Assembly: GCA_964421015.1 (NCBI GenBank)
Contig: CAYQUS010000001.1
Location: 300,726-364,725 of the forward strand
From: an uncultured Planctomycetia bacterium
GTDB taxonomy: Bacteria; Omnitrophota; Gorgyraeia; Tantalellales; Tantalellaceae
Direction: 5' to 3'
DNA: 64,000 nt
Shown: positions 13,119 to 61,655 of the stretch, in pieces
Layout: each line of letters starts with the position of its first letter
How positions within the stretch are numbered: the stretch's first letter is position 1
Position numbers and translations under genes: made by a program
The notes under the pieces: generated by a model
Database searches by the model: none
Told to the model about the DNA's origin: nothing
Seen by the model: only the letters and a program-made list of their open reading frames with translations

Positions 13119-13122
13119 ATTC

Positions 13123-37096: not shown

Positions 37097-37116
37097 GTCG
37101 TCTCCTAGTATGCATT

Positions 37117-43510: not shown

Positions 43511-44974
43511 TTAACTCGTGCCTCTCCTTAAAAATACCCTATTTAATACCCTGGTTTTCCTATTAAGATACCAAAGCACGGGTATATATGCTATACAAAA
43601 AAATAACATTCCCAGTATCCCCCTTAGAAGCGGGGGCATATCGACAGTTATTCTCTCGATACTAAAAACAACCGCCAAGGAATATAAGAACGGTAGCATA
43701 ACGCTACTGAGAAAAACCAACACTTTGGACCACCTTTCGGAATGCCTGACGCAATATATAAGAAGCACGGCAAAGTAAACATAATAGGTCAAGGATGTCC
43801 CCCAGGCAACCCCGCATATACCGTACCCTCCCTTTATGGCCATATAATTTACAGCTACACCGACAAAACAGACCAGGATGGTCATAGGAATAAGGACCAT
43901 CTGTTTGCTTATGGTGACCACAAAACTGCTGGACATGGGTGTCAGTGACAGAAAAAAACATCCCGCAAGAAGTATTTTCATGCTGCTCACACCGGGCAGA
44001 TACTGCGGCAGAAAGAACGTCACCAGCACCGGAATGACAAAATACGCGCTAGCCAGCAACACCGGAAAAAGGTACGCCATGACAAAAGTGGTTTGTTTCA
44101 CGTACTGCACTATGTGCCCCCGCGAGTCCGTCCTTCCGAAAGCCTCCTGCATATCCGGCGCGACTACAATACCGAATAATTTAGGAAGAGTGTTGGTATA
44201 GGTAAGGGCAAGAACAGCTATGGAATAAAATCCCATCGGTTCCGCTCCCAACATCCTTATTATCATTATTTTGTCCAGGCTTATTAGAACGGTATACGCT
44301 ATACCCGAAAGCAGTATGGGAAGCCCGAACTTGGACAAAGCGAATATCCTCCCGACGTCTATCCTGAACCTTAAGGAGTAATCGGTTTTAAGCATAATGA
44401 ACAGCCAGCTCAAAAAAGTAGCCGCTAAGGTGGCCATAAAAATACCCGAAAGTCCGAAGTATTTTGTCAACAGTATGATAAAAAACAAAGAACTCAAAGA
44501 ATTGAATAGAACATTGCCGGATAGCAAAGAAAAATTCTTGTCGGCTCGCAGCATTTCCTGAAAAAGATTATAGAAAAGCGTGACAGAGATTATAAAGGGG
44601 ATCATCCTTATTCCGGCTATGATATACCCTGGAGTACCCGTCGGCATGACAAAAGAAACGGAAATAAAAACCAGAATTACCAGAAACGACATCAACGTCG
44701 CTATCGAAAAGGCCGAATCCCTCATGGCCTGGACTTCCCCTACGTCTCCCTTGCCCCGGAAATATGGTATCTTAACGGTTATCGCTGTAAAAACACCAAA
44801 ATGAACGAAAAGAGAATAATTAAGCACGACAAGAAATCCCGACCATATTCCCATCATTTCCGGGTCGAGAAATTTACGCGTCATAATACTTGTAAAAACC
44901 CCTATGACCTGTGCCGCCAGGGTGAACGCCGCGAAACGGGAGCTCTCTCTTATGACCTTACCTACATATTTCAT
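43511..44974 (-). CDS. Polysaccharide biosynthesis protein of the MOP/Wzx flippase family.
   Basis: 487 aa with about 12-14 TM helices. Organisation and internal segments (AVLALTYTNTLPKLFGIVVAPDMQEAFG) resemble Wzx-type O-unit flippases. Confidence 0.55.
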   Translation of the reverse strand: MKYVGKVIRESSRFAAFTLAAQVIGVFTSIMTRKFLDPEMMGIWSGFLVVLNYSLFVHFGVFTAITVKIPYFRGKGDVGEVQAMRDSAFSIATLMSFLVILVFISVSFVMPTGTPGYIIAGIRMIPFIISVTLFYNLFQEMLRADKNFSLLSGNVLFNSLSSLFFIILLTKYFGLSGIFMATLAATFLSWLFIMLKTDYSLRFRIDVGRIFALSKFGLPILLSGIAYTVLISLDKIMIIRMLGAEPMGFYSIAVLALTYTNTLPKLFGIVVAPDMQEAFGRTDSRGHIVQYVKQTTFVMAYLFPVLLASAYFVIPVLVTFFLPQYLPGVSSMKILLAGCFFLSLTPMSSSFVVTISKQMVLIPMTILVCFVGVAVNYMAIKGGYGICGVAWGTSLTYYVYFAVLLIYCVRHSERWSKVLVFLSSVMLPFLYSLAVVFSIERITVDMPPLLRGILGMLFFCIAYIPVLWYLNRKTRVLNRVFLRRGTS

Positions 44975-45004: not shown

Positions 45005-46882
45005 TCATATTTTTCGGTTTTTCATAGCCGCCAGAGCGTTAAACGCCCTGTCTCTCCGGAAGGGTATATCCACGATATAGTCCTCCGCGGGCGCCTCCAG
45101 AAAATCCTCTACCTTGGCTATAGCCTCGGAAAAACTCCCGAACTTCTGCAATGACCTCCCGAAGAGACGTTTCCCTCTCTCTCCCACTTCGACACACGGC
45201 GAATAAAGAGACATGACCGGGAGCCCGGCCACGGCGGCCTCATGGAAACTTGTAGAGGGATAATCAAGAATGACCCGGTTTAAGCCTCCCAGGCACTCGG
45301 ATACGCGTTTCTCTTCTATGGAAATATTGCTTTTACCATGGTCCAAAATGTACCTGACTATTGACATCCTTGACCATTCCTGGCCCGGAGCGTACTTGAA
45401 GATGAACCTTGTGTTTTTCTTTGAGAAAAAATGATCCACAAGTCTCTTCTGGAACTCATAGTACCAGGTTATGGGATACAGATATCCGTTGATACCTCTG
45501 AACCCAAGAAAAAGTTTAGTCGGTATGTACATAACAGGCCCGTCATCACGCCTTTTCCGCGCCCATTTCCTTTTCACGGCCTCAAGCTGTCCGGCATCCT
45601 GGAACACGCTGCACCCAGAAAGATAACCGTAATTCAGGGCTTCTTTAAGCCTTTTCTCCTCGGAAGAGTTAATGGAAAAATATATGTCAAAATGGTCCAT
45701 TTCACTTATGAGGTCCCTGCCCCCGTCGGCAACGCTGCATGAATGCTGAAAACAAACCCTTTTACCTTTTTTAGCCGCGGCTAATATAGAACTTATAGAA
45801 TCCTTTTCCGAACTGGATCTGGCCACGACATAGTCTATTTTTTCTTCTTCTATAAACCTCTCCAAAACAGTCATTTCGGAGAGGTTCCTGTAAAAAACAT
45901 CGCCTATAAGGTCTCTCATGTACGGGATAAAAAACCTTGATACGTCCGCGCCGCATTGTTCATTAAGCCAGCCTGTTATCTTTGTCTCGAGAGGAAACCT
46001 CTCTGCGGCCGCGCCGCAAGATGCCTTGATATCATCTTGCCCTTTTATCTTATACGGCACTGAAAGATCCAGACATACTTCATGGAAAAGACCGTGTACC
46101 GAGAATATAGACTCCGGCCCGGTCTTAAGAAAAACCTTTCCCCGGTTCCTTATGGTCTCAGCTATAAACCTGTCTATCGCGTAACATCCGGCATGAAGAG
46201 ACATGACGTTCAATCTTTTTTTAACCCGGGAAGGCAAAACTTTCATGAACTTCCTGAACCTGAAAAAATAAAAAATCGACCTGGCGGCACACCTAAAAGA
46301 ACATATCCCGGGAAACTTAAAATGCCGCTGCTCTAATCTCTTCGGAACGCCTCCTCCCGATACCCAGCGGGAAAAAGCCACACCCCTCTGCTTTGATATT
46401 TCCTCTATAAGACCGGAAACTATTTTGCCCTGTTCGGGAAAAGGTCTATAGAGACTGGCGCCCTCCATATAAGCGCCATCTCTCCCGCAATAAGTCACAG
46501 AATCGGGGCGTACCGCCTCCAGAAATTTTATCACCGCCCTGGAAACAAGGACCAGAGAATCCATAAGACACTTGACCCTGAAATAATGAGCCCTTACAAG
46601 ACCCAGGTTTTTCGGAATATCTGCCCGTAGATTTTTCCGGAGAAAATGGTCAAGCTCATCCATTACGGAAAGCTGTTCCGTAAAGTACATTCCCTGGTCC
46701 GGCAAAAGGCTCTCTTCCTCATAGTAGTCCTCAAGGATGGAATAATTAATGCCTTTTTTGCCAAGCAGATACGAAACTGCGGGGCTAAGCGAAACAAGAT
46801 TTTTTCCTGAAAGATCCGTTTCGTGAACAATATCCTCTACTAGATACCAGTCCCCATGCATATTTTTGAAATCGCGTAACAT
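45005..46882 (-). CDS. Large hypothetical protein. The C-terminal region resembles a GT-B/Capsule_synth/TagF-like nucleotide-sugar transferase fold. Candidate glycan-tailoring transferase.
   Basis: 625 aa. The C-terminal segment ...RVILDYPSTSFHEAAVAGLPVMSLY resembles donor-binding ends of retaining GT-B enzymes. No firm family assignment by eye. Confidence 0.45.
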   Translation of the reverse strand: MLRDFKNMHGDWYLVEDIVHETDLSGKNLVSLSPAVSYLLGKKGINYSILEDYYEEESLLPDQGMYFTEQLSVMDELDHFLRKNLRADIPKNLGLVRAHYFRVKCLMDSLVLVSRAVIKFLEAVRPDSVTYCGRDGAYMEGASLYRPFPEQGKIVSGLIEEISKQRGVAFSRWVSGGGVPKRLEQRHFKFPGICSFRCAARSIFYFFRFRKFMKVLPSRVKKRLNVMSLHAGCYAIDRFIAETIRNRGKVFLKTGPESIFSVHGLFHEVCLDLSVPYKIKGQDDIKASCGAAAERFPLETKITGWLNEQCGADVSRFFIPYMRDLIGDVFYRNLSEMTVLERFIEEEKIDYVVARSSSEKDSISSILAAAKKGKRVCFQHSCSVADGGRDLISEMDHFDIYFSINSSEEKRLKEALNYGYLSGCSVFQDAGQLEAVKRKWARKRRDDGPVMYIPTKLFLGFRGINGYLYPITWYYEFQKRLVDHFFSKKNTRFIFKYAPGQEWSRMSIVRYILDHGKSNISIEEKRVSECLGGLNRVILDYPSTSFHEAAVAGLPVMSLYSPCVEVGERGKRLFGRSLQKFGSFSEAIAKVEDFLEAPAEDYIVDIPFRRDRAFNALAAMKNRKI

Positions 46883-46933: not shown

Positions 46934-48238
46934 TCAAATGAGCTCATCTACATTGTCACAGACTTTTCGGAACGCCTCCACCACGTCATCAATATCCCTT
47001 TTTTTCATATCAGAATGCATAAGTTCGTGGGTTATTACTATCTTTTCGTGCATTTTCTCGGCAATCGGACAGAGCCCTTTACCGTAGCTGATTTCACCCT
47101 TGTACTTTTCACATTTCCAGGGACAACCGGTCTTACCATAAGCTATCCTTTCCCTGAAAATAGGCTGAAGGTAAAGCGGCCTAACATAACCCGCCCCCAC
47201 TTTTATCCCCTCCGTCTCTCTGCGGGTCGTAAATTCGAGCTCAGCCTTGACCGCCTCCACAAATCTGTCACGCCCTACGGGAGAAGCTTCCGGATTGTAT
47301 TTCAAAACATGTAGATAAAAAACATGTTTTGAAAAAGGCCTTGTGGGGGCTGCTTCCAGCAGACTCGATCCGGACAGACCTTTACAAATACGTTCCACAT
47401 TCTCTATTCTTCTGCCCACAAGGCGCTCTAGTTTCTTAAGCTGCTCCCGGGCCATCGCCGCCTCGATCTCTGTCATCCTGAAGTTATACCCTATCATATT
47501 AACCAGGGACTTAACACCCTTAGCCTCAGTCACAGCCTCCGCGTGGTTCCTTATTAAACGGAGTTTTTCAGCCAGATCATCTGAATCCGTGACGATAACC
47601 CCCCCCTCTCCCGTGTGAATATGTTTATGGTAATTCAAAGAATAAATCCCCATATCCCCCAGTGTGCCGGCATATTTTCCTTTGTATTTTGCTCCCGGCG
47701 CCTGAGCCGCGTCCTCTATCACAATTAGGCCGTGTTTTTCCGCGAGAGCTTTAACGGCATCGGCATCGTATGGCTGTCCGAAGATATCCACCGCTATTAT
47801 GGCCCTGGTCCTTGGTGTTATTTTCTCTTCAATAGACCTTGCCGAGATACAGAAATGATCCTCCTCTATGTCCGCGAAAACCGGGATAGCGTTAAAAATG
47901 AGAGGCGCCACCGCCGATGCCGACATCGTGTAAGGTGAAACGATTACCTCGTCCCCGGGCCCTAATCCGGCGGCTCCGACAGCGCAGTAAAGGCCGGAAG
48001 TGGCTGAATTTACTGCTACGGCGTGTTTTACCCCGAAATATTCCGCCCATTCTTCCTCAAGAGCCCTTACCTCAGACCCTCCGTAAAAATCCTCATGCCA
48101 TGCGCCCAGGAATTTGGAAAGTACTTTCGATCTTAAAACTCTCAGCGCCGCCTTTTCCTCTTCCCTGCCTACGGGAGAGTACGCCGGGAATTTAACATTC
48201 CTAACCTTAGAGCCTCCGTTAATAGCTAACTTCGCCAT
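46934..48238 (-). CDS. DegT/DnrJ/EryC1/StrS-family PLP-dependent sugar aminotransferase.
   Basis: 434 aa. FLGAWHEDFYGGSEVRALEEEWAEYFGVKHAVAVNSATSGLYCAV...DAAQAPGAKYKGKYAGTLGDMGIYSLNYHKHIHTGEGGVIVT. The PLP lysine context is conserved. Confidence 0.85.
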   Translation of the reverse strand: MAKLAINGGSKVRNVKFPAYSPVGREEEKAALRVLRSKVLSKFLGAWHEDFYGGSEVRALEEEWAEYFGVKHAVAVNSATSGLYCAVGAAGLGPGDEVIVSPYTMSASAVAPLIFNAIPVFADIEEDHFCISARSIEEKITPRTRAIIAVDIFGQPYDADAVKALAEKHGLIVIEDAAQAPGAKYKGKYAGTLGDMGIYSLNYHKHIHTGEGGVIVTDSDDLAEKLRLIRNHAEAVTEAKGVKSLVNMIGYNFRMTEIEAAMAREQLKKLERLVGRRIENVERICKGLSGSSLLEAAPTRPFSKHVFYLHVLKYNPEASPVGRDRFVEAVKAELEFTTRRETEGIKVGAGYVRPLYLQPIFRERIAYGKTGCPWKCEKYKGEISYGKGLCPIAEKMHEKIVITHELMHSDMKKRDIDDVVEAFRKVCDNVDELI

Positions 48239-49365
48239 ATGTTTTCCTCCACCAGAGAAACTATCCTTTCCGCCGCGTCCTTAATGAAATCAAAATCGCA
48301 CCCCACTGTGTTATTCCCCGTCAAAACCGAATTTATCCGCCTTTCCAGCTCGTTATATTCCGTAACCGTACTCAACGAACCTCTTTTAGACAATATAAAT
48401 GGGTCGGGACAGGACAGTCCTATTTGAACGCTTATTACCGGTTTTTTTAATATAGCCGCCTCGATAAGAAGCATAGAGGACATCCCTACCACAAGATCGG
48501 AAGAAGAAGCAAGGGTAAGAGAACTCGACGAACGGTCTACCTCAAACCTTAACTTTCCGACCTTTTTGCCGGCAATATCCGACCATTTTTCTTCTTTTTC
48601 CCTGGGGTGGGGTCTGACAACAATAATAAAATTTCCGGGAAATCCACGGGAAACAACTTCCAGGGACTTTTCTACCTCTGAAAATATTGTCATTTCATCA
48701 TAACCGAGCGTGTTGCCTTTTTCAGCCTTGCCGTAATCCTGCGATATGGGTTCTGAGACAAACACTATGACCTTGTCTTTTTCTCCCGCCCCCATAGAAT
48801 CTCTTAAATAATATATTTCACCTTGGGACAAGCGCTCCGCCTTCTCAAGGACCGTCTTAAAATGCGGCTGTCCGGTAACAACTATGGCCTCGGGGTCGAC
48901 ACCCTCGGAGACAGCCTCTTCTCTGGCTTTCTCATCCATGACAAGAACCTTAGAGGGGACATAATCCAGTTTCTTATTGTTTTTATAATCCCTCATGCCG
49001 GAGACCCCGTACTTGGAAAATCTTATCCCGTAATTAAGCCACTGGTCCAGTATAGCCATACTGAAAATACCAAGACCGCTGGCCTCTTTCCACATGTACC
49101 TTTCCGTCATGTCTTCAGCGCTGGTTCCTGTGATCAGGATATCCGGGGAAAGATCCGACAAAAAATCCCTTATCGATCCAGGGCTTATCACGGTAACCTC
49201 CGCGGCTATATCTTTGCCCTCGAGACCGTATCTTTTATACACTTCCATCGCTGTATCCTTGCCGTAAAGAAACACCTCGTATCCTTTCGCTCTGAGCGGT
49301 CCGGCCAAAGGCACAACGGTATTGGCACCTCCCGGATCTCTTGAAAAAAGCAGTATCTTAGGCAT
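48226..49365 (-). CDS. Hypothetical protein. Possible GT-B-fold glycosyltransferase/hydrolase-like protein.
   Basis: 379 aa. N-terminal KILLFSRDPGGANTVVPLAGPL resembles Rossmann starts of GT-B enzymes (MurG/PseG-like). No catalytic motif confirmed. Confidence 0.4.
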   Translation of the reverse strand: MPKILLFSRDPGGANTVVPLAGPLRAKGYEVFLYGKDTAMEVYKRYGLEGKDIAAEVTVISPGSIRDFLSDLSPDILITGTSAEDMTERYMWKEASGLGIFSMAILDQWLNYGIRFSKYGVSGMRDYKNNKKLDYVPSKVLVMDEKAREEAVSEGVDPEAIVVTGQPHFKTVLEKAERLSQGEIYYLRDSMGAGEKDKVIVFVSEPISQDYGKAEKGNTLGYDEMTIFSEVEKSLEVVSRGFPGNFIIVVRPHPREKEEKWSDIAGKKVGKLRFEVDRSSSSLTLASSSDLVVGMSSMLLIEAAILKKPVISVQIGLSCPDPFILSKRGSLSTVTEYNELERRINSVLTGNNTVGCDFDFIKDAAERIVSLVEENIWRS

Positions 49366-50332
49366 TTTTACCCTTTTTTATTTTTTCACAGGACGCGAGA
49401 GACAAAGAGGCTTCCCTGCCGCTGCACAAAGGCTCAGCTGCTCCTTTAAGGCAATCGTAAATATTCTTAGCGGCGTACAATAGACCTTTTCCAAGATCCG
49501 TTTCGATACAACTGGATAATCCAAGGATCTTGTATCCCTTAAAAACCGGGCTTGTTTTAACATCGTATTTTTCTATTCTGAACCCGGACTCCGTTATCCG
49601 TATCCTGGATTTTTGAAAAAAAAGATCAATTTCAAATACCGTATAATTGCCGCATGGTGCCGGAGCAAGGTAGAAATCCCCGCCGCTTATGCGTAAAAAA
49701 GCGGAAACCGACGGGTCCTGATCATAATAATCCTCTGTCTTTCCCAGGGAAACAGGAGTCCTTACTTCACCTAAAAGAAATCTCAGAAGATCAACCATGT
49801 GTGACCCATTGTGAAAAAGACCCTTTCCGTAATGACCTGTTCCCGTCACAAATTTGCCATACTTCCCGGAAGAGATATCTTTCCTTAACGCGTTAAACTC
49901 TGGAACAAACCTTCGGGTATAATTAACTATAAGCAGTATTTTTTTTCTAAAATAAAGTTCGGATATCTCACGACAGTGCCTCACAGATAAAGCAAGCGGT
50001 TTTTCACAAAAAACAAGCTTTATGGGGTATCTTGATATTTTCCTAAGTACTTCATAGTGCCCGCTATCAGGCACGGCCACCGAAACTACGTCCACCTTGC
50101 CGCTGGAAAAAGCTTCCTCTATAGACGCAAAAGCCTTGCCTCCCCAGGATCTGGAAGCCTTAATGGACCTTTTAACGTCGCTATCCACAAACCCGGCTAA
50201 CTTAAATCCCGGGCAAGCGGTATACGCGTGGGCATGGGTAAGGATTTTCTTGTCCGAAGGCCTGTCAAAAGAGGCTCCTATATTCCCCGCCCCGACAATA
50301 AGAACATTGTACCTCACACTTTCCTTACCCAT
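49358..50332 (-). CDS. Gfo/Idh/MocA-family oxidoreductase.
   Basis: 324 aa. YNVLIVGAGNIGASF Rossmann motif, EKPLA motif. Confidence 0.7.
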   Translation of the reverse strand: MGKESVRYNVLIVGAGNIGASFDRPSDKKILTHAHAYTACPGFKLAGFVDSDVKRSIKASRSWGGKAFASIEEAFSSGKVDVVSVAVPDSGHYEVLRKISRYPIKLVFCEKPLALSVRHCREISELYFRKKILLIVNYTRRFVPEFNALRKDISSGKYGKFVTGTGHYGKGLFHNGSHMVDLLRFLLGEVRTPVSLGKTEDYYDQDPSVSAFLRISGGDFYLAPAPCGNYTVFEIDLFFQKSRIRITESGFRIEKYDVKTSPVFKGYKILGLSSCIETDLGKGLLYAAKNIYDCLKGAAEPLCSGREASLSLASCEKIKKGKNA

Positions 50333-51032
50333 TCGCCTTCTCTCCCCTTAAAACCCGGTATTTGTACTCGGCCATCTTCCAATCTTCCTCATTATCGATA
50401 TCCTGCACTTCCGACTCGGGTATTTCTATGCCCACGGTATTATCCGTAAAAAGGGTTTTTTTGCGAATAAAACTCTCGGTTCTCAGCCAGTAAAATTGAC
50501 CGGCATCGTGATAGGCGGGCATAAGGTCCTGCGATCTTTTATCCCTGTTTTCCGGCCATATCATCGAAACCTTACCGGACTCTAACTTAAATGCCCTCTG
50601 TATGGGAAAACTGAACCTGACTACGGGAACCGCTGAATCAGCACTGCTATCTTCCAGAAGTTCGAGACTGCGTCTTATTTTATCCGGGGATATCAGAGGC
50701 GCTGTGGGGTATATACAGCATGCATACTTAAAGTCCCTCCCCCTTGCCGAATAATCATTTAATACCTCCAGCATGACCTCGGCCGTGGTTGAGTAGTCCC
50801 CGGAAGTGCCCCTTGACCGCAGAAAGGGAACTTTGGCTCCATATTTCCTGGCTATAGACGCTATATTTTCGTCCTCGGTGGACACCATGACCTCATCAAA
50901 ACACCCAGAAGCAAAGGCGGCGTCAATAGAATACTTTATTATCGGATTACCGAGAAAATTCCTTATATTCTTGCCGGGGATACGCTTAGATCCTCCCCTC
51001 GCCGTTATTACGGCTACAGTGTTTTCCGCCAT
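50325..51032 (-). CDS. pseF: Pseudaminic acid cytidylyltransferase (CMP-Pse synthetase, PseF; NeuA/KdsB family).
   Basis: AVITARGGSKRIPGKNIRNFLGNPIIKYSIDAA is the CTP_transf_3 signature. Start trimmed to MAENTVAV at 51032. The longest ORF starts at 51056. Confidence 0.75.
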   Translation of the reverse strand: MAENTVAVITARGGSKRIPGKNIRNFLGNPIIKYSIDAAFASGCFDEVMVSTEDENIASIARKYGAKVPFLRSRGTSGDYSTTAEVMLEVLNDYSARGRDFKYACCIYPTAPLISPDKIRRSLELLEDSSADSAVPVVRFSFPIQRAFKLESGKVSMIWPENRDKRSQDLMPAYHDAGQFYWLRTESFIRKKTLFTDNTVGIEIPESEVQDIDNEEDWKMAEYKYRVLRGEKANG

Positions 51033-51119
51033 AAATCCTCCATCACCCGGGCACACCCCGCTTCCCGCGGGCTATGCCCGGGATTTCAACGCTCCCTTTA
51101 TGTCACTCTTTCAGGACAG

Positions 51120-52322
51120 TTATGCCGACTTTTTCTTTTTCGTCGTCTTCGCTGCCAGTTTATAAGCCAGCTTGTAGACGTCTATCTTCTTTTTCGGCGG
51201 TTCCTGTTCCCATATGGGGGACTTTAGTTTCCACCTTTCTTTTCCGACTCGCTCCCACATGTCCCCCCTGAAACCATCGGCCACACGCCAGAATTCCTTT
51301 ACGCTTATGCCTATATAGTCACAGAAGGCTTTCACATATTTCGCGGAGCACTTCCCATCGAAGGCTTTAACAAGAGCAATAGCCTCATCTCTTGTTATCC
51401 TCCCGCTCCTTATATCGTAGCATGCGTGGTCGGTACACTGTCCGAAACCGAACTTTATATACTTCAGCATCTGATTCACCTGGACAAGATCGGAATCCAG
51501 CTGATAAAAGTTGCCGTATGTACCTATGTCTTTAGGGTCGTGATCTGCCGGCCTCACCTTCAACCCGTTGGCCATGGAGAACCTGACATTGTTGTACTGC
51601 GACCACTCCTTAGCGTAATACTGGAGCCACACCCCCCTTATACCCTTACTTTCCAGGCCTTCCCTGTCGTAGTGAAAAAGAAAAAGATCTTTCTCGGAAA
51701 TACCGTCTCCGACATACTTTTTCCAATCCTCCGAAAGGGTATTTAGTTTATTCGCGTTAAGAGCGTTATCGTTGGTTCCCACGCCGGTATTTCTTACACC
51801 AAGGGTCAACCCGGCATTCTCTCCCTGTATTATAAGCGGAATACCGAACCGCTCTGCCGCAATATATGTCGAAGCCCAGAGCGAGTATTCCGTGACCTTC
51901 ACAGGATTGAGAAATTTGTAAAAATCCCTCTTTACCACTTTTTTCATGATCTTCGGATTCGGCCTCAACTTTATAGTGTCAAACCCGAGGTTTATTATAT
52001 TCTCTATGTTCTTTGACCCGATAGCCGTTATCCCTTCAGGCTCGCTGTTCACAAGAAGGACACGAAGCCCTAGCCTGTCTCTCGCGTACAAGGCCTGAAA
52101 AGTAGAATCTTTACCACCACTTATCCCGACCGCGCAATCGTAGGGAGCCTTTGTGGTCTTCTTTGCCCACTCGGCTATATCGTGGAGTTCTTTCTCCCGC
52201 TTAACCCAATCGATCTGGCGATCTGATTCCTCCTCGTAGAGGCATGCCCCGCAGACTCCTTCTTCGTTGAAGTAGATCCCGGGTCTCGTATCCGGCTGAA
52301 CACATCTTTTGCAATACTTCAT
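51120..52322 (-). CDS. N-acetyl-sugar amidotransferase (PP-loop ATPase, WbpG/PseA-like). Converts an acetamido group to an acetamidino group.
   Basis: 400 aa. N-terminal Cys4 CKRCVQPDTRPGIYFNEEGVCGAC, then PP-loop GISGGKDS. This is the same arrangement as LPS/flagellin-glycan amidotransferases. Confidence 0.65.
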   Translation of the reverse strand: MKYCKRCVQPDTRPGIYFNEEGVCGACLYEEESDRQIDWVKREKELHDIAEWAKKTTKAPYDCAVGISGGKDSTFQALYARDRLGLRVLLVNSEPEGITAIGSKNIENIINLGFDTIKLRPNPKIMKKVVKRDFYKFLNPVKVTEYSLWASTYIAAERFGIPLIIQGENAGLTLGVRNTGVGTNDNALNANKLNTLSEDWKKYVGDGISEKDLFLFHYDREGLESKGIRGVWLQYYAKEWSQYNNVRFSMANGLKVRPADHDPKDIGTYGNFYQLDSDLVQVNQMLKYIKFGFGQCTDHACYDIRSGRITRDEAIALVKAFDGKCSAKYVKAFCDYIGISVKEFWRVADGFRGDMWERVGKERWKLKSPIWEQEPPKKKIDVYKLAYKLAAKTTKKKKSA

Positions 52323-52335
52323 TTTGATACCTCCG

Positions 52336-53367
52336 TTATTTTACGAGATCCAGTTTAATAGGAGTTCCTTTTGTAACGCCTCTTTTGGCTTTTTTGCCGG
52401 CAATTCGTTTAAAATACCTCGGCTCAAGCCCGAAACATGGCCGGATAGACCGAACGTTCTCCTCGTTTATCACCTCCCCCTTTTTAATATCCTTAACGGC
52501 AAATAAAGACCGTCGGAATACCCTGCTGGTTTTTTCCTTCTTTGTTGTGCCGTAACTTGCTTGTCCTAGAGCTTTCTCGACCACACGTATGTCCCTGACC
52601 AGCGCTTCAAGCTCAGAAGGTTCTATGGAGAAAAAACTGTCAGGAGTTTGTATTTTACGGTCAAGGGTGAAATGTTTTTCCACCATTACCGCTCCCAAGG
52701 CCGCCGCGGCTACCGAAGCGGCCGTATCAAGGGTGTGATCCGATATCCCGACCCGCGCGCCGAACCTTCTAGCCATATCCGGAATAGTTCTAAGGTTCAT
52801 CTCGGAGGGATCGGCAGGATAACTCGAAACACATTTCAAGAGGACCACTTCTCCTGCGCCGGCTCTTCTGGCGGCCATTACAGCCCGTTTTATCTCTCCG
52901 AGATCAGCCATTCCGGTCGAGAGAACCAAAGGCTTACCGGTTTTTGCGGCGTACTCGATAAGGGGTATATCCACAATCTCAAAAGACGCTATCTTGTGGA
53001 AAGGCACACCGATCCCCTCCAGAAAATCCACAGAACTTTTATCGTAGGCCGTTGAAAAAAAAGTTATTTTTTCATCGTCCGCTGTTTTTTTCAGCAACGG
53101 GAACCATTCCCAGGGGGTGAACGCCTTGGAATAAAGTTGATAAAGCGTCTGTCCACCCCACTTGGGGTGCCGTAACCTGAAAAACCTCTTATCCGAATCT
53201 ATCGTAAGGGTGTCGGGAGTATAGGTCTGGAATTTTACGGCGTCAGCCCCGCATTCTTTGGCCTTTTTTATCATGGCTACAGCCCTGGTAAGGTCCTGTC
53301 CGTGATTTGCGGAAACCTCGGCAGCAATGAAACAGCCTCTCTTATCGAACAGATTTTTTACGGCCAT
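52336..53367 (-). CDS. pseI: Pseudaminic acid synthase (NeuB-family, PseI).
   Basis: 343 aa. CFIAAEVSANHGQDL...AKECGADAVKFQT...IASFEIVDIPLI...PLVLSTGMA...DHTLD NeuB TIM-barrel motifs. A C-terminal SAF/antifreeze-like domain is present. The Pse context gives the assignment. Confidence 0.85.
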   Translation of the reverse strand: MAVKNLFDKRGCFIAAEVSANHGQDLTRAVAMIKKAKECGADAVKFQTYTPDTLTIDSDKRFFRLRHPKWGGQTLYQLYSKAFTPWEWFPLLKKTADDEKITFFSTAYDKSSVDFLEGIGVPFHKIASFEIVDIPLIEYAAKTGKPLVLSTGMADLGEIKRAVMAARRAGAGEVVLLKCVSSYPADPSEMNLRTIPDMARRFGARVGISDHTLDTAASVAAAALGAVMVEKHFTLDRKIQTPDSFFSIEPSELEALVRDIRVVEKALGQASYGTTKKEKTSRVFRRSLFAVKDIKKGEVINEENVRSIRPCFGLEPRYFKRIAGKKAKRGVTKGTPIKLDLVK

Positions 53368-53878
53368 TGGTCCTCCGCCATATTTTAAAAAGCGCTGACA
53401 GAAGGGCGCTCGCGTAATAGGGATACAGTCTGTTGTACGCCTCCTCCGGGGTAGATACTCCCCTAATATCTACGAATTCCTCAACGATAACCTTCCCGGC
53501 GTCAACTTCCTCGGTCATTAAGTGAACTCCCACACTTGCCTTAAAATTCTCCTCAGAAAGAGCTTTCCCCACAGGATCGGCACCTTTGTATTTGTAAAGA
53601 TACGGATGAACATTTATCGCTCCTACACGGGGTAGCGATATAATGTCATTTCCGGCTATTTCCCGCCCGTGAACACTGACAAGAAGATCTGATTTTTTTA
53701 GAAAATTCCTGAATGATTTCGTTTTTATGCTTCGGAATACAGGTATACCCAGCAACTTCAAGATCCTGTCGGTATCCTCGCTATAACTTACAGCGGCTAC
53801 TATGCCGCTTCCCGAGGCAAGGATAGTCATAACACCTAAAACACCGGCTTGTCTGCCTCCCATAAAACATGTCCTCAT
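53342..53878 (-). CDS. Formyltransferase-domain protein (Fmt/PurN fold) embedded in the Pse operon.
   Basis: GAINVHPYLYKYKGADP corresponds to the formyl_transf HxSLLPxxxG motif region. Start trimmed to MRTCFMGG at 53878 to avoid a 41-nt overlap with pseG. Confidence 0.55.
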   Translation of the reverse strand: MRTCFMGGRQAGVLGVMTILASGSGIVAAVSYSEDTDRILKLLGIPVFRSIKTKSFRNFLKKSDLLVSVHGREIAGNDIISLPRVGAINVHPYLYKYKGADPVGKALSEENFKASVGVHLMTEEVDAGKVIVEEFVDIRGVSTPEEAYNRLYPYYASALLSALFKIWRRTNGRKKSVR

Positions 53879-53885
53879 TTTGGTG

Positions 53886-54887
53886 TTAGGCCTCACGGCG
53901 CAACCTCCCCACAATACTGTCCGCAACTCGCATAGCCCCTTTCCCGTCTACCAGGGCATTCCCTGACAAGCTCATGGAAAGCCTGGTATTTTCATCTGAC
54001 AGTTCCATAATAAGCTTTTCCAGATTCTCCAGCGCGCCCGGATCATAACAATAGCCCGCATTTTTGATAAAACCGGCCTTTTCCCAGCCGTATATGTTAT
54101 TGCTCTGATTCTCGGCGACGGCAAATGTTATGGTGGGGACTCCCGTTCTGGCCAGTTCATAAAGTGTCTGGCCTCCGGCCGAAACGGCAAGATCAGCATC
54201 AAGCATGAGTTCTCTCATTGCCCCGTCGTCGGGATAGAATACGTACTTGATCTTTTCCCCTTCTCCGGGATTTGCAAGGAACTCTCCCTTAAAACCCTTT
54301 CCGACTACCACCGCAAGTTCAATTTCAGTAAATTTTTTCCTGAAAAGATCCACCACCTTATGTGTCATCCCGGCGGGGTCTTCCCCGCCAAAAGTAACCA
54401 TTACTTTCCTGACGGACTTTCTTATATGTTTACGAGACTCTTGCCAGAACGCCTTGCGTAAAGGTATGTACTGTGTGCCCAGAAGATACCTCATTCCCAC
54501 TGGACGAGGGTATGGCATGCTCTCCGCTCCGACGGAACCATTGATAACAACCCCTTTCGGGTATTCAATGCGCATCGTATCGTCAATGTATGCGGGAACC
54601 CCCGCTATTCTTGACACTTCGCTATAGAAACTAAAATCTGCATCATATGAATCAACTATAACAATGTCATCGCCTTTTATGTTTTTGAGTGCCGTCCGGC
54701 TGTGTTCTATCCAGTTTATGAGCTCATATTGGACCCCCGACAAAATATCTCCGGCGCTGCCATCCCCGTCCAGATAAAAAACTGCCTGGATCCCCCTTTC
54801 CTTAAAGGCCTGGGCGATAGAAAGACACCGTGTAACATGTCCCGCCCCTCTTCCCTTTCCGCCTTCTGTAAAAAAATAAGCTCTCAT
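53886..54887 (-). CDS. pseG: UDP-2,4-diacetamido-2,4,6-trideoxy-beta-L-altropyranose hydrolase (PseG, GT28-like fold).
   Basis: 333 aa. N-terminal YFFTEGGKGRGAGHVTRCLSIAQAF matches the PseG GxGHxxR start. It sits between the pseH-like and pseI genes. Confidence 0.7.
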   Translation of the reverse strand: MRAYFFTEGGKGRGAGHVTRCLSIAQAFKERGIQAVFYLDGDGSAGDILSGVQYELINWIEHSRTALKNIKGDDIVIVDSYDADFSFYSEVSRIAGVPAYIDDTMRIEYPKGVVINGSVGAESMPYPRPVGMRYLLGTQYIPLRKAFWQESRKHIRKSVRKVMVTFGGEDPAGMTHKVVDLFRKKFTEIELAVVVGKGFKGEFLANPGEGEKIKYVFYPDDGAMRELMLDADLAVSAGGQTLYELARTGVPTITFAVAENQSNNIYGWEKAGFIKNAGYCYDPGALENLEKLIMELSDENTRLSMSLSGNALVDGKGAMRVADSIVGRLRREA

Positions 54888-54888
54888 T

Positions 54889-55461
54889 TCACTCTTTGTT
54901 CTTTGTGTTGGATTTAGCGTATTTCACTATATCGAGATATTCTCCGTCCTTTAAAAAAACTTTTTTTTCTATACCCTCAAACAACATCCCGTTCTTTTCA
55001 GCAACCCTTATCATCGCTTTATTACGTGACGTCATCCCCGAAAAAACCCTGTTAAGCCCAAGCGTCTCGAAAGCGTATTCTGTCACAAGTCTGTACGCCT
55101 CAAGACCTATCCCCCTGCCCCAGACATCTTTCTCGCCGATAATTATGGATATTTCTCCGGAATTGTTCTCCCACGATATGGACAGACTTATATTACCAAC
55201 GTGCCGGCCGTCGGCCATGTTTATTATGGCAAATACCGCCTTGTCGCCGGACCTGTCCACCTCTTCCACATACCTGGCCGTTTTTTCTAAAGTGTTATCT
55301 CCCTGTCCGTGCCGATTGTCCCTGCAGACCTCTTTGTCGTTGAACCAGTCCGTGTAACGCTGGCTTACGTGCTTCAGAGAAAGCCCCTCGAGCCGGATAG
55401 TATCGCCGTTCAGCTCTGGCTCATCTATGACTTTTTTCATTCGTTCCCTGAATTTTTCCAT
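54889..55461 (-). CDS. pseH: GNAT-family N-acetyltransferase. Probably UDP-4-amino-4,6-dideoxy-N-acetyl-beta-L-altrosamine N-acetyltransferase (PseH).
   Basis: GNAT motif A region VWGRGIGLEAYRLVTEYAFETLGLNRV. Start trimmed to MEKFRERM at 55461. The longest ORF (55497) overlaps the upstream methylase by 32 nt. Confidence 0.6.
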   Translation of the reverse strand: MEKFRERMKKVIDEPELNGDTIRLEGLSLKHVSQRYTDWFNDKEVCRDNRHGQGDNTLEKTARYVEEVDRSGDKAVFAIINMADGRHVGNISLSISWENNSGEISIIIGEKDVWGRGIGLEAYRLVTEYAFETLGLNRVFSGMTSRNKAMIRVAEKNGMLFEGIEKKVFLKDGEYLDIVKYAKSNTKNKE

Positions 55462-55465
55462 AAAA

Positions 55466-56104
55466 CTATTTCCGTATGAGGTAAAACTTGTCGACATTAT
55501 CGCTGCCTATGTACTTAACCAGCCTATGCTTGATGATACGGCATTCGGGGAAACTCTCCTTGAACATCCCGGCAAAGTCCCCCTTCCACATCATATTGTT
55601 CCTGCCCCTGTAGGTTATTTCATGATATTCCGGTGAATAATACTCGTATCCCCATATGTACCGCGAACTTGTCCTGTAAATTTCAGAAAGAGCCTTACTT
55701 ATATCCTTCGGACTTATGTGTATCAAAACTCCCGCCGTGAACACAAGATCAAAAAACCCATCTTTAAATGGAATATCGAAGGCTGAGCCGCATATCACAT
55801 CTATCCCTTTCAGTCTCTTCTTGGCTTTTTCCACGGCATACCGGTTTATTTCTACCCCATAAAGATTTTTAAATCCCAACTTTTGAAACAAGGCCAGCTG
55901 GTTGCCGACATTCGAACCCACCTCGAGTATCCTCATGTCCTTATCCAGCTTACCGAGAAAGTCTCTAGTTATGCTGCTGGCCGTAATACCGTACATTTTT
56001 TTGTAAACCGCGTCTAATTTGCCGGGGGAAAAGGTGTTTCTCCCGACATATTTTCTGCCGAACTCACCGGTCCATTTCTCCAGCTGTTTTGTCATAATTT
56101 CCAT
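55466..56104 (-). CDS. Class I SAM-dependent methyltransferase (Pse-biosynthesis-associated methylase type).
   Basis: 212 aa. MRILEVGSNVGNQLALF...FDLVFTAGVLIHISP. Confidence 0.6.
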   Translation of the reverse strand: MEIMTKQLEKWTGEFGRKYVGRNTFSPGKLDAVYKKMYGITASSITRDFLGKLDKDMRILEVGSNVGNQLALFQKLGFKNLYGVEINRYAVEKAKKRLKGIDVICGSAFDIPFKDGFFDLVFTAGVLIHISPKDISKALSEIYRTSSRYIWGYEYYSPEYHEITYRGRNNMMWKGDFAGMFKESFPECRIIKHRLVKYIGSDNVDKFYLIRK

Positions 56105-57312
56105 TATTTTCCCCTTCTTTTAAAAATGTCCATGACTGTTTTTATTACCCTTGCCGTTTCAGTTTTTTTCATAAGAGGATATATCGGCAAGCTTATCTCC
56201 CCTGCATAAAACCTCTCGGCATTCGGACAAAGACCCGGTTTGTACCCAAGCCCCCTGTAATAAGGGTGAAGGTAGACAGGGATATAGTGTACTTGAACGC
56301 CTATACCTCTTGAGCGCAGTTCTTCAAAAACTTCTTTTCTCGATCCCGCATGAGCATCACTCATTCTTATAGGATACAGGTGCCAGGCTGACCTCTTCCT
56401 ATGATCCCGTACCGGGATATCAAAGTAAGGGTTAGAAGCGAACTTTCGCGAATATTCTTCAGCGATAACCCTTCTTTTTGAAATAAATCCGTCGAGTTTT
56501 CCTAGCTGCGCAATGCCAAGAGCGCACTGGAAATCCGTTATCCTATAGTTCAGGCCGAGGGACTGCATCTCGGCATACCACCCTCCGTTACTATTTCCTC
56601 CGCATATTAATTTCTTCTCATCCCGGGTTATCCCATGCGTTCTTAACTCCAGAAGTTTCTCGTAAAACTTACGGCTGTTTGTAAGAACAGCTCCCCCTTC
56701 CCCGGTAGTTATGGATTTTACCGGATGAAAGCTGAATACGGTCATATCCGAGTGTTCGCAACTTCCCACCTTTACCCACCTGTCCCGTTCCCTGTACTCA
56801 GCCCCTAAAGCATGGCACCCATCCTGGATGACCGCAAGTTTATTCTTTTTGGCTATCTTAAATATTTCGGCGATATCGCATGGCACACCGGCGTAATCCA
56901 CGGGAAGTATGGCTTTAGTTCTCTTTGTTATCTTCCTCTTGATGTCATCGATCGATATATTGGCCGTCGCCGGATCCACGTCGGCAAAAACGGGCTTAGC
57001 TCCGGAATAAAGGATGGAATTGGCTGTCGCGGCGAAAGTCATTGGGGTCGTTATAGCTTCGTCCCCCCTGCCCAGACCCGAGGCAATACAGGCGATATGG
57101 AGAGCCGCGGTACCGTTGGAAACCGCTACCGCGTACTTGCTGCCGCAATAAGCAGCCAGAGCTTTTTCGAACTCTGCTACCGTGGGCCCCTGGGTCAGCC
57201 AGTCACTTTTCAAGACCTCTATGACGGCTCTGATATCGTTTATATCTATTGTTTGCCTGCCATATGGAATGCTCTTAAGCATTTTTCCGTCCTTCGCTTT
57301 TATCAACGGCAT
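56104..57312 (-). CDS. pseC: UDP-4-amino-4,6-dideoxy-N-acetyl-beta-L-altrosamine transaminase (PseC, DegT family).
   Basis: 402 aa. IPYGRQTIDINDI...AVAVSNGTAALHIA...SFHPVKSITTGEGGAV matches PseC-type aminotransferases. Confidence 0.85.
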   Translation of the reverse strand: MPLIKAKDGKMLKSIPYGRQTIDINDIRAVIEVLKSDWLTQGPTVAEFEKALAAYCGSKYAVAVSNGTAALHIACIASGLGRGDEAITTPMTFAATANSILYSGAKPVFADVDPATANISIDDIKRKITKRTKAILPVDYAGVPCDIAEIFKIAKKNKLAVIQDGCHALGAEYRERDRWVKVGSCEHSDMTVFSFHPVKSITTGEGGAVLTNSRKFYEKLLELRTHGITRDEKKLICGGNSNGGWYAEMQSLGLNYRITDFQCALGIAQLGKLDGFISKRRVIAEEYSRKFASNPYFDIPVRDHRKRSAWHLYPIRMSDAHAGSRKEVFEELRSRGIGVQVHYIPVYLHPYYRGLGYKPGLCPNAERFYAGEISLPIYPLMKKTETARVIKTVMDIFKRRGK

Positions 57313-58295
57313 TAAGAATCTTTAACCATCCTCTTAAGATCACTCAAGGTATACCAGCTTTTATTATTGTCACTTCTGTACCCTTCGAAATTGAAATCCA
57401 AGGCCCTTCCCCCGTCCTTCTTTTCCCTGCCGCGCACAACGTAATGATAAGTAATGTACCTGTCCTTATATTCATTGGTGTAGATCCCGTCATCCGCCGA
57501 CACGAGTGTCTCATGCAGTTTTTCCCCTTCCCTTACGCCCACTATTTTATGCCGGCAATTTGGGCAGACCGCCTGGGCAAGCTCAACTATCTTAATACTC
57601 GGCATCTTGGGTATGAATATCTCTCCCCCTTTCATGTCATTAAGAGACCTTAAAACAAAATCTACTCCCTGGTCCAGGGTTATCCAGAACCTGGTCATTC
57701 TCGGATCCGTTATGGGTACCACGCCTTTTGCCCTGCACTCCTTAAAAAAAGGTACGACGCTCCCCCTGGAACCAAAAACATTTCCGTACCTGACCACGCT
57801 GAACTCTGTCTTTCCTGAGGAATAGTTATTAGCGGCAACGAACATTTTTTCCGAACAAAGTTTAGTCGCCCCGTAAAGGTTTATAGGATTCGCGGCTTTA
57901 TCGGTACTTAAGGCTATCACCTTCTTAACTCCATTGTCGATAGCCATATTTATTACGTTTTCAGCCCCTATAACGTTGGTCTTGACAGCTTCAAAAGGGT
58001 TATATTCGGCTGTCGGAACTATCTTTATGGCCGCCGCGTGCACAACGACATCCACGCCGTTAAAAGCCCTGTGAAGCCTGTCGGCGTCTCTCACATCTCC
58101 CAGGAAATAACGTATGTTAGGGTATTTCGCCACGCTGAATTTTTTCGCCATCTCCCACTGCTTCATTTCATCACGGCTGAAAATTATAAGTTTTTTGGGA
58201 GAGTATTTCTCAAGCACGGTTTCGGTGAATTTATTCCCGAAAGATCCTGTCCCGCCCGTTATAAGCACTGTTTTATTTTTGAATATCTTCTCCAT
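57312..58295 (-). CDS. pseB: UDP-N-acetylglucosamine 4,6-dehydratase, inverting (PseB/FlaA1/CapD family).
   Basis: 327 aa. KTVLITGGTGSFGNKF...LIIFSRDEMKQ...VVHAAAIKIVPTAEYNPFEAVKTNVIGAENV...YGATKLCSEKMF. Confidence 0.9.
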   Translation of the reverse strand: MEKIFKNKTVLITGGTGSFGNKFTETVLEKYSPKKLIIFSRDEMKQWEMAKKFSVAKYPNIRYFLGDVRDADRLHRAFNGVDVVVHAAAIKIVPTAEYNPFEAVKTNVIGAENVINMAIDNGVKKVIALSTDKAANPINLYGATKLCSEKMFVAANNYSSGKTEFSVVRYGNVFGSRGSVVPFFKECRAKGVVPITDPRMTRFWITLDQGVDFVLRSLNDMKGGEIFIPKMPSIKIVELAQAVCPNCRHKIVGVREGEKLHETLVSADDGIYTNEYKDRYITYHYVVRGREKKDGGRALDFNFEGYRSDNNKSWYTLSDLKRMVKDS

Positions 58296-58348: not shown

Positions 58349-58585
58349 TTATTCCTCTCCCTCATGCAGCCAGTTACGGGCCTTATTGTAGGCTTTCCCT
58401 ACCTTGTCTTCTACCTTGGGAGAAACCACTCTTAAAAGTTCCTTACCCAGGATTCGATACTGTTTGCCCACTTTGGCGGTCCTTATTATTCCTTTCTTAA
58501 TTAACCTCATCATGGTACTTGTAGATACCTTGAGTAAAGCCTCGGCTTCTTTTACCGTATAGACCGTGTTATCGTTTATCTCCAT
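58349..58585 (-). CDS. Small helix-turn-helix DNA-binding protein (excisionase/MerR-like HTH_17 type).
   Basis: 78 aa. YTVKEAEALLKVSTSTMMRLIKKGIIRTAKVGKQYRI is an excisionase-family HTH. The RBS GGGGG lies 5 nt upstream of the ATG. Confidence 0.6.
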   Translation of the reverse strand: MEINDNTVYTVKEAEALLKVSTSTMMRLIKKGIIRTAKVGKQYRILGKELLRVVSPKVEDKVGKAYNKARNWLHEGEE

Positions 58586-59966: not shown

Positions 59967-61655
59967 CTATTTTTTCCGCATGTCGTAAATCAGTATCGAC
60001 CCGCCGGCTGTGGCTGAGACTTTCTCATGTTTTGTCCACCCGAGAGATTCCAGATACTGGGCGCTTACGGCATACACGGCCTCTTGAGGAAACTCTCTCT
60101 CTTCCTCGTTAACATCAATATGCTTCACTCCGTAGTATGAAGGATCGGCTGTACCGAAATAAACTAGCCTGACTTCCTTTATACCGTTTTTATCCATGTA
60201 GCTCTTAAGAGCCGGGAGATCCTGCCCCCAATCCAGATTAGAATCCCTAAGGTACAAATAACCGTTCTCAGTACCGCCCACAAGTTCGTTGAAATAGCTC
60301 AGGTAATCGGGCCACACGAAAAAATGCAGAACCGCTGTCCAGACCACAAGGCCAGCTCCGAGAAAATTTAAGATCTTCCCCCCTTTTAAAAGGGTACCCA
60401 TTCCCAAAGCGGCTATAACAAAGATCATGGGATATGCCGGCAGTACGTATCTCAGTCCCAGCTGAAGGTTGGAACGCGACGCCGCTACAAAGAACATAAC
60501 TGCGAAAAATAAAAGATACAGGTTTAGATCTCTTTTTTCCCGTTTTGTGAATACAAGCACCGTCCCGGTAAAAAAAGCTATCACGACCGGGATAGGTGTT
60601 TTTATAATGAACGCCGCGGCGTAATAAATGGGGTTACCCATGGCGCTCCAGGAACCCATAAAAAAGTTCCTGGTACCCTCCGCGCTATGCCTCGCTATTC
60701 CGGCTATCCCAACCCAAAAAGAACTTAAAGGAACGGGAACAGAATAAAGGAACTTTCTCGCAAGATCCGTTAGTCCGGTTCCCGCTGAAGGGAATATTTT
60801 ATTTAGAAATTCCAGAAAAAACCCCTCTTTTTGAGAAGCCCTCATGGCTCCCTCAAGGAGAGGCCTCAATTCAAAGAGATACCCCGCCCACAGGATAAAA
60901 AAAGCCGCCGGAAAAACTACAAATAGCATGGTACGCATAGCCTTCCCGAAGCGCGACCTTTCCTCTTCCCGGTATTTAAAAAAAAGACCGAAAGAGACAA
61001 GGATATAGGCGGGTAAAAGAAAAACCGCGGTAAACTTGCTGAGAAGGGCCAGACCCAGCGTCACGCCGGAAACCAGGGCGCGTTCCGTACGGGGATTTTC
61101 GAGAAAATCCCACATACAGAATACTGACAGCATTATGAATACAGTTGCCGTCATGTCTGTGGTAGCAAGGCTGGAATGCGCGATCATGTTCGGGCATAAA
61201 AAGTACATAAAAGCCGCAAGCACGGCCGTCAGGTCCCCGTAATGCCTTCTTGTCCAGAAAAAAAGGAAAAATCCCCCAAAAAGCCCGATAACTACGATGG
61301 GTAACCTCGAGAAAAGAACTATCTTATCCGCCTTTTCCCTATTTAGGCCATATATGAATTCTCTGGAGAATTCGCCTCTGTCCTCCCTGGCCCAGAAAGA
61401 CCTTTCATCCGGAAGTTCAAGCTCGAGAGCCAGTAGCGGCAAAGCCATAATGTACCGAGAAAGCGGCGGAACCTCGGTGGAAAAAGAAAAATCGCCTTTT
61501 GTCAGAAAAATATACCCTGACGCTATATGGTGCCCGGTCTCATCACAGGTAGGCGACTTTCTGACAAGACTTGTAACGGAAAGCGCGGTGAACGCTATTG
61601 ACAGGATGAACAATATAAAAACCGGAGTATTCTTGCGAAAACATCCCTGGCTCAT
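59967..61655 (-). CDS. PMT_2/GT39-like polytopic membrane glycosyltransferase (GT-C fold).
   Basis: 562 aa with more than 11 TM helices. The first extracytoplasmic loop has PTCDETGHHIASGYIF, which is the DE-motif of protein-O-mannosyltransferase/ArnT-type enzymes. Confidence 0.55.
   Translation of the reverse strand: MSQGCFRKNTPVFILFILSIAFTALSVTSLVRKSPTCDETGHHIASGYIFLTKGDFSFSTEVPPLSRYIMALPLLALELELPDERSFWAREDRGEFSREFIYGLNREKADKIVLFSRLPIVVIGLFGGFFLFFWTRRHYGDLTAVLAAFMYFLCPNMIAHSSLATTDMTATVFIMLSVFCMWDFLENPRTERALVSGVTLGLALLSKFTAVFLLPAYILVSFGLFFKYREEERSRFGKAMRTMLFVVFPAAFFILWAGYLFELRPLLEGAMRASQKEGFFLEFLNKIFPSAGTGLTDLARKFLYSVPVPLSSFWVGIAGIARHSAEGTRNFFMGSWSAMGNPIYYAAAFIIKTPIPVVIAFFTGTVLVFTKREKRDLNLYLLFFAVMFFVAASRSNLQLGLRYVLPAYPMIFVIAALGMGTLLKGGKILNFLGAGLVVWTAVLHFFVWPDYLSYFNELVGGTENGYLYLRDSNLDWGQDLPALKSYMDKNGIKEVRLVYFGTADPSYYGVKHIDVNEEEREFPQEAVYAVSAQYLESLGWTKHEKVSATAGGSILIYDMRKK

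Follow-up and report, generated by a model that had tools for sequence, protein, structure and literature searches.

We analyzed a 64-kb stretch of DNA from a Candidatus Omnitrophota genome (assembly GCA_964421015.1, contig CAYQUS010000001.1, positions 300,726 to 364,725), here called the window, and found on its minus strand, between positions 46934 and 58295, the 5′ part of a long operon that encodes the enzymes of pseudaminic acid (Pse) synthesis together with several genes for modifying this sugar. We put the probability at roughly 60% that the operon supplies a CMP-activated Pse derivative for a surface glycan exported by a Wzx flippase, and that this derivative is a Pse5Am7Fo-type sugar, with an acetamidino group at N5 and a formyl group at N7, possibly with additional amination or methylation. 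Pseudaminic acids occur on cell surfaces and flagella and influence motility, phage binding, and recognition by the immune system; few of the enzymes that set their N substituents are known. All the enzyme types at the locus have known precedent (PseJ, PseA and related amidotransferases, PtmH), and what is new is their combination, a distinct formyltransferase clade, and an uncharacterized conserved module.

A preliminary description, made from the sequence alone, had listed the genes from 50325 to 58295 as pseB, pseC, methylase, pseH, pseG, formyltransferase, pseI, amidotransferase, and pseF, and had claimed a complete gene set for the conversion of UDP-GlcNAc to CMP-Pse. The open reading frame (ORF) listing gives exactly this order, with a GNAT family gene in the fourth slot: nine minus-strand ORFs in a row together span precisely 50325 to 58295. 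Profile scores are given below as bits against the curated NCBIfam cutoff (Pfam was searched too), and genes of the window are on the minus strand unless stated otherwise. E values across the family matches ranged from 1e-44 to 1e-149, which rules out chance.

The inverting UDP-GlcNAc 4,6-dehydratase gene pseB (57312 to 58295) matched TIGR03589 with 488 versus 408 bits, as well as Pfam Polysacc_synt_2, and its product fell far under the cutoffs of the rival models FnlA (246 versus 730) and LegB (70 versus 475). It shares 1 nt with pseC (56104 to 57312), which encodes the UDP-4-amino-4,6-dideoxy-AltNAc aminotransferase (TIGR03588, 497 versus 424; DegT_DnrJ_EryC1). The pseudaminic acid synthase gene pseI (52336 to 53367) encodes NeuB and SAF domains and scored 453 versus 340 on TIGR03586, and the CMP-pseudaminic acid synthetase gene pseF (50325 to 51056) scored 300 versus 206 on TIGR03584, a model on which the SpsF-like enzymes of related loci reach less than 33 bits. 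The closest syntenic relative of the locus is a contig from Logan accession SRR23086397 (L123), in which pseC, the methylase, GNAT, and formyltransferase genes, pseI, and pseF are 66 to 76% identical to those of the window (73% for PseF). The predicted UDP-sugar hydrolase gene pseG (53886 to 54887) reached 150.5 versus 153.55 bits on TIGR03590; its product carries an N-terminal G-A-G-H-V-T-R motif (GxGH), and the orthologous domain of L123, 43% identical, passes the same model with 158 bits. A PDB sequence search with PseG returned no match. Judged by these family assignments, PseB, PseC, PseG, PseI, and PseF make up the backbone route by which UDP-GlcNAc is converted to CMP-Pse, and the gene set is present as claimed, with four enzymes above their cutoffs and PseG 3 bits short.

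The type of the NeuB family gene separates Pse from the other nonulosonic acids considered. It is a PseI-type gene, as had been proposed, and fails the NeuB_NnaB model (307 versus 400); with the PseB and PseI models passed and those for LegB and NeuB failed, we rejected the reading of a locus for legionaminic or neuraminic acid. Of the six enzymes of the Campylobacter jejuni and Helicobacter pylori CMP-Pse5Ac7Ac pathway (PseB, PseC, PseH, PseG, PseI, and PseF), five are thus recognized here by equivalog models, PseG marginally under its cutoff, and the reactions that lead from UDP-GlcNAc to CMP-Pse are expected to be the same. Unlike that pathway, the locus has a GNAT that is not of the PseH type and a formyltransferase gene between pseG and pseI, and unlike the flagellin islands of those species, it is a Wzx-type surface polysaccharide locus without flagellar or Maf genes in the window.

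The formyltransferase gene (53342 to 53896; PF00551 Formyl_trans_N, 46 versus 26 bits) overlaps pseI by 26 nt. Its database product has 184 amino acids and starts at a GTG codon; an alternative ATG at 53878 would give 178 amino acids. The preliminary description had recognized an Fmt-fold protein, and this proved sound: the residues of the Asn-His-Asp catalytic triad (N89, H91, and D126) are invariant across 34 homologues, which form a tight family of single-domain proteins of about 180 amino acids. An AlphaFold2 (AF2) model with a pLDDT of 94 resembled most closely the ArnA N-terminal UDP-sugar formyltransferase domain, Fmt, and WbkC (TMq 0.83 to 0.87). No NCBIfam model covers the clade, which is separate from PseJ. 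The closest homologues of both the formyltransferase and the GNAT are from Omnitrophota, including Candidatus Omnitrophus magneticus, and two proteins of the window share clusters at ≥90% identity with Candidatus Omnitrophota proteins.

When we scanned one genome per species, the formyltransferase family turned up at 31 loci, which belong to Omnitrophota, Auribacterota, Elusimicrobiota, Dehalococcoidia, Patescibacteria (the candidate phyla radiation [CPR]), DPANN archaea, and methanogens. It adjoins pseI in about 26 of the 31, with pseG-fmt-pseI as the bacterial-type order. In two loci annotated with Pfam (L001 and L034), the order is pseB-pseC-(..)-pseF-(..)-pseG-fmt-pseI, and no acetyltransferase domain was detected within 20 kb. 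In an independent set of metagenome loci seeded on the methylase, a formyltransferase gene separated pseG from pseI in 10 cases and a GNAT gene did so in 2; the slot was empty in 7 and held another gene in 5. At least three formyltransferase clades occupy this slot in Pse clusters of the metagenome loci (L042 to L121). A PIG-L/LmbE-type deacetylase is found in the slot in one locus (L061) and beside a formyltransferase gene and pseI in another (L040), positions that hint at N-acyl swapping at N5.

The preliminary description had counted the formyltransferase among extra tailoring genes. Since pseI-adjacent loci usually lack an acetyltransferase, we read it differently: by gene content and synteny, and by analogy with PseJ, the enzyme is probably a functional replacement of PseH that gives an N7-formyl group and not an additional decoration. 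It would act in the PseH step and, with N10-formyl-tetrahydrofolate as the formyl donor, modify the 4-amino group of UDP-4-amino-4,6-dideoxy-β-L-AltNAc, the group that becomes N7 of Pse. The same step is attributed to the characterized PseJ, which belongs to a different clade. Synthesis of Pse5Ac7Fo has its precedent in PseJ of Anoxybacillus kamchatkensis (PDB 6CI2; Reimer et al. 2018), and PMC11040635 cites both this enzyme and PseA. PseJ and the window enzyme are alike in being short (about 180 to 190 amino acids), single-domain formyltransferases encoded within a Pse cluster, but the sequence relation is weak (pairwise E value, 7e-4), and in the profile search PseJ ranked 26th, after Fmt, WbkC, ArnA, and VioF. 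The analogy with PseJ consequently relies on position and not on orthology.

The strongest competing explanation keeps the GNAT as a functional PseH, as the preliminary description did. The product would then be Pse5Ac7Ac, and the formyltransferase, amidotransferase, and methylase would act later and independently at other positions or yield a mixture of glycoforms. The GNAT gene (54889 to 55497) lies directly upstream of pseG, the classical position of pseH, and canonical PseH-like GNATs are indeed encoded between pseG and pseI at some loci: there PseH is the best match, with 40 to 160 bits (160 bits in L116). The order pseC-methylase-GNAT is kept in L122 and L123 and resembles the pseH-methyltransferase-pseC order reported for Clostridium butyricum (PMC13317340). 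The match of the window GNAT itself to the PseH model TIGR03585 is weak, at 31 versus 93 bits, and it is instead a RimL/SpeG-like N-acetyltransferase (Acetyltransf_3, 79 bits). Its orthologues in L122 and L123, 60 to 69% identical, reach 22 to 23 bits on the PseH model and also match SpeG/RimL-like proteins best, and a PDB search with the GNAT matched no PseH. Moreover, a sugar acetylated at both N5 and N7 offers no free amine to the formyltransferase, and most formyltransferase relatives occur in clusters in which no homologue of the window GNAT was detected. We consider this explanation as a whole rather unlikely, though credible enough to be kept in view.

The GNAT gene is associated instead with a second aminotransferase, encoded in a module downstream of pseF. 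In a set of 59 de-duplicated loci, each 8 kb or longer and seeded on neither the GNAT nor this module, the second aminotransferase was present in four of seven GNAT-positive loci versus 2 of 52 GNAT-negative loci (Fisher P = 0.001, without phylogenetic correction). In Clostridium tyrobutyricum, the GNAT gene directly follows the second aminotransferase gene. In the formyl-based reading that we prefer, the GNAT may provide a parallel N7-acetyl route or acetylate an extra amine.

The amidotransferase gene (51120 to 52322) belongs to the N-acetyl sugar amidotransferase (NASAT/WbuX/PseA) family (TIGR03573, 349 versus 203). The PseA/WbpG-like character noted earlier, with four cysteines and an SGGKDS loop, is borne out by the translation, which contains C4xxC7...G-x-C23xxC26 and the PP-loop S68GGKDS. 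Among the window ORFs of at least 150 amino acids, we found no HisH/HisF (WbuY/WbuZ) partners, so the enzyme appears to stand alone. L123 and several other loci do have such partners. The family motifs are an SGGXDS PP-loop and CXXCXn[GN]XCXXC, and the closest solved relative of the window enzyme is the Legionella pneumophila NASAT (PDB 8WEX; E value, 2e-33) (PMC10607449). The PP-loop, the tetracysteine motif, and the family hidden Markov model are shared with C. jejuni PseA, PtmG/LegA, Pseudomonas aeruginosa WbpG, Escherichia coli WbuX, and the L. pneumophila enzyme, and the expected chemistry is the ATP-dependent conversion of an acetamido to an acetamidino group.

In the proposed pathway, this step would follow formylation. 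With N7 carrying a formyl group, N5 would be the only acetamido group left, and a Pse5Am7Fo-type sugar would result. Two minimal contexts suggest the same product: in L005 and L011, a window-type amidotransferase gene (53 and 72% identity) directly follows fmt-pseI, and no homologue of the window GNAT was detected, so that the sole acetamido group left would again be N5. The amidotransferase family is linked to the Pse pathway by a gene fusion in L123 (positions 5143 to 7476 of that contig), which encodes a 777-amino-acid protein with a WbuX domain at residues 1 to 348 (339 bits) and the PseG domain at residues 442 to 702 (158 bits). The fused WbuX is a more distant paralogue, 28% identical to the window amidotransferase; L123 also encodes a second WbuX together with its HisH and WbuZ/HisF partners. 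The Legionella O-chain consists of a 5-acetamidino legionaminic acid.

The methylase gene (55466 to 56104) encodes an S-adenosylmethionine-dependent methyltransferase, and its membership in a Pse-associated family stands at 182 versus 112 bits on TIGR03587. In most of 40 metagenome loci, it comes directly after pseC or after pseC and an amidotransferase gene. A methyltransferase beside an amidotransferase is known from PtmG and PtmH, which make Leg5AmNMe7Ac (PMC3766260), and the pairing within a nonulosonate cluster seen with PtmH and the L. pneumophila N-methyltransferase ORF8 recurs here. By analogy with PtmH, which N-methylates the amidine of Leg5Am7Ac, the methylase may have the amidine as its target here, or it may act on another nitrogen. 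Unlike the PtmH pairing, the methylase in the surveyed loci tracks pseC and not the amidotransferase. A coupling of the two had appeared in a small first sample (four of four; P = 0.02) and was dropped after the larger sample described below.

Both ends of the previously described operon, 50325 and 58295, are gene limits, but 50325 is not where the operon ends, because overlapping genes continue beyond it. The unit comprises 12 or more genes and not 9, as it includes a three-gene module past pseF. ORF overlaps along the operon are 1 to 26 nt, and a promoter and terminator scan found no terminator-like intergenic site on the minus strand inside it. The module consists of genes for a Gfo/Idh/MocA oxidoreductase (49358 to 50332; PF01408), a UDP-GlcNAc 2-epimerase-fold protein (48226 to 49365), and a second DegT family aminotransferase of 434 amino acids (46934 to 48238), here called DegT2. 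The overlaps are 8 nt between pseF and the oxidoreductase gene, 8 nt between the latter and the epimerase-fold gene, and 13 nt between the epimerase-fold gene and the DegT2 gene.

DegT2 matched PF01041 with 293 bits and the PseC model with 213 versus 424; it is 65% identical to its orthologues in Clostridium and L040, which are always 434 to 437 amino acids long and always last in the module. The oxidoreductase is 46 to 48% identical to the module proteins of C. tyrobutyricum and L040. For the epimerase-fold protein, the Epimerase_2 match was below threshold, and the assignment comes from an AF2 model (pLDDT 92) whose top PDB folds are all hydrolyzing or nonhydrolyzing 2-epimerases (TM 0.6 to 0.72; about 15% identity). 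We found 429 homologues of this protein, some of them in cultured Clostridium. The order cytidylyltransferase, oxidoreductase, epimerase-fold protein, DegT is kept in Clostridium sporogenes (L038), C. tyrobutyricum (L039), L040, and CPR loci (the run is seen in L023, L029, and L031), at 42 to 65% identity to the window, and a GNAT or methyltransferase gene comes next. We found no description of this four-gene run in the searchable literature. The Clostridium flagellin islands (L038 and L039) share the run and also encode a formyltransferase, PseI, and PseG, but there the run is flanked by flagellin and Maf genes and the cytidylyltransferase is not of the PseF type (29 to 32 bits), whereas the polysaccharide locus of the window encodes a canonical PseF.

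An oxidoreductase with an aminotransferase is a generic means of converting a hydroxyl to an amine. The fixed position of the module behind the CMP-sugar synthetase suggests a CMP-nonulosonate substrate, and the module plausibly modifies the Pse sugar: its three proteins could install an extra amine that the GNAT acetylates. An extended version of this idea, which we find unlikely, is that the 12-gene unit makes an undescribed nonulosonic acid with an N7-formyl group, an N5-acetamidino group (possibly N-methylated), and a third nitrogen introduced by the oxidoreductase and DegT2 at the C8 or C4 hydroxyl of the CMP-sugar and then acetylated by the GNAT. If this were true, the module, which ranges from Clostridium flagellin islands to the CPR, would represent a widespread, uncharacterized branch of nonulosonate chemistry. 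Our literature searches gave nothing useful on triamino nonulosonic acids, on pseudaminic acid in Omnitrophota, or on TIGR03587/PtmH. We also considered that the module makes a 3-amino hexose that feeds the NeuB-type synthase, and we rejected this idea because, by established chemistry, the hexose O3 would become the ring oxygen of the nonulosonate.

It is doubtful that the GNAT, amidotransferase, oxidoreductase, DegT2, and epimerase-fold protein form instead a WbpB/WbpE/WbpD/WbpI/WbpG-like route to a separate UDP-2,3-diamino-2,3-dideoxy-hexose with a 3-acetamidino group, the genes of which would merely adjoin the Pse genes. Each of these enzyme types has its counterpart in the Wbp pathway, UDP-2,3-diacetamido-glucuronate 2-epimerase is among the fold matches, and the window holds many further glycan genes. 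A window-type amidotransferase gene adjoins a GNAT or DegT2 gene in L006 and L029 and a DegT2 gene in L067. However, the module is fixed directly behind the CMP-sugar cytidylyltransferase gene in the Clostridium flagellin islands, the CPR loci, and L040, always within nonulosonate clusters; the WbuX domain of L123 is fused to PseG; and L005 and L011 have the window-type amidotransferase with Pse genes only. The module oxidoreductase reaches 51 versus 450 bits on the UDP-GlcNAc(A) 3-dehydrogenase model NF040723, on which a paralogue at 37117 to 38127 reaches 174 bits. A better WbpB/WbpD/WbpI-like set is already present in the window at 36512 to 38127 and 41116 to 42240. There, this oxidoreductase, nearer to UDP-GlcNAc 3-dehydrogenase, adjoins a hexapeptide acetyltransferase and lies near a WecB-type 2-epimerase; the set lacks an aminotransferase of its own.

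Downstream of the DegT2 gene are genes for a soluble 625-amino-acid protein of no detectable family (45005 to 46882) and a Wzx-type flippase (43511 to 44974; Polysacc_synt and Polysacc_synt_3; 12 transmembrane-like segments). The 625-amino-acid protein had no Pfam, NCBIfam, or PDB sequence match and no transmembrane-like segments. Its homologues are encoded directly after pseI or the amidotransferase gene in five loci of the Omnitrophota type (L001 to L004 and L011), and this conserved position makes it a candidate pseudaminyltransferase. Since there are no flagellin or Maf genes in the window, the sugar appears to be destined for a polysaccharide or a lipo-oligosaccharide.

Several observations weigh against a Pse5Am7Fo-type product. 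Both the window and L123 retain the GNAT besides the formyltransferase, so Pse5Ac7Ac may be a product or coproduct. In the profile search with the formyltransferase, Fmt (6e-15) and sugar N-formyltransferases (1e-13) came out ahead of PseJ (8e-8). The assignment of N5 as the site of the amidotransferase is a deduction that would hold only if N7 is formylated, and C. jejuni PseA acts at N7. Co-occurrence of the methylase and the amidotransferase was not enriched (20/40 versus 9/24; P = 0.24). PseG lies 3 bits under its cutoff, with no other family scoring higher, and all substrate assignments at the locus are predictions from sequence.

Together with its relatives, this locus suggests that uncultured bacteria and archaea may often make Pse in an N-formyl form, by means of a formyltransferase clade distinct from that of PseJ. 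The conserved three-gene module is attached to nonulosonate clusters that include those of cultivable Clostridium, in which its function is directly testable, and the WbuX::PseG fusion is a concrete lead on the pathway stage at which the amidino group is formed. These findings extend a known pathway family and do not overturn the current understanding of it.

Upstream of pseB is a 563-nt gap that contains only weak promoter-like sites and a gene for a 78-amino-acid excisionase-type helix-turn-helix protein (58349 to 58585; TIGR01764, 36.6 versus 28.8 bits; a weak, MamR-like similarity of 41 bits), which may be a regulator of the operon. In L034, a MarR/TrmB-like gene occupies the matching position. 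In the promoter and terminator scan, promoter-like counts were not above those of shuffled sequence and terminator-like counts were only modestly above them, and the scan did not define boundaries. Rfam searches gave no family match anywhere in the window.

The window as a whole forms a single large glycan locus, nearly all of it on the minus strand. All genes of at least 150 amino acids are on that strand except one (23849 to 25276, plus strand), and every 2-kb bin has a negative GC skew. Two sulfotransferases, with CysD and a CysN/CysC fusion for the synthesis of 3′-phosphoadenosine 5′-phosphosulfate (PAPS), are encoded at 12159 to 14244 and 19793 to 22651, and a sulfated glycan is predicted from them. 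A 1,342-amino-acid multidomain protein (3868 to 7896) combines two methyltransferase domains with a GT2 domain and a GT4-like domain between them; at least five more methyltransferase genes and a radical SAM/SPASM gene (8511 to 9497) flank its gene. We also detected four PMT_2 (ArnT/GT39-like) membrane glycosyltransferases (18319 to 19809, 30718 to 32601, 32603 to 34258, and 59967 to 61655), a GT87-like protein (38114 to 39415), and a 729-amino-acid protein with 10 transmembrane segments and no family match (61659 to 63848).

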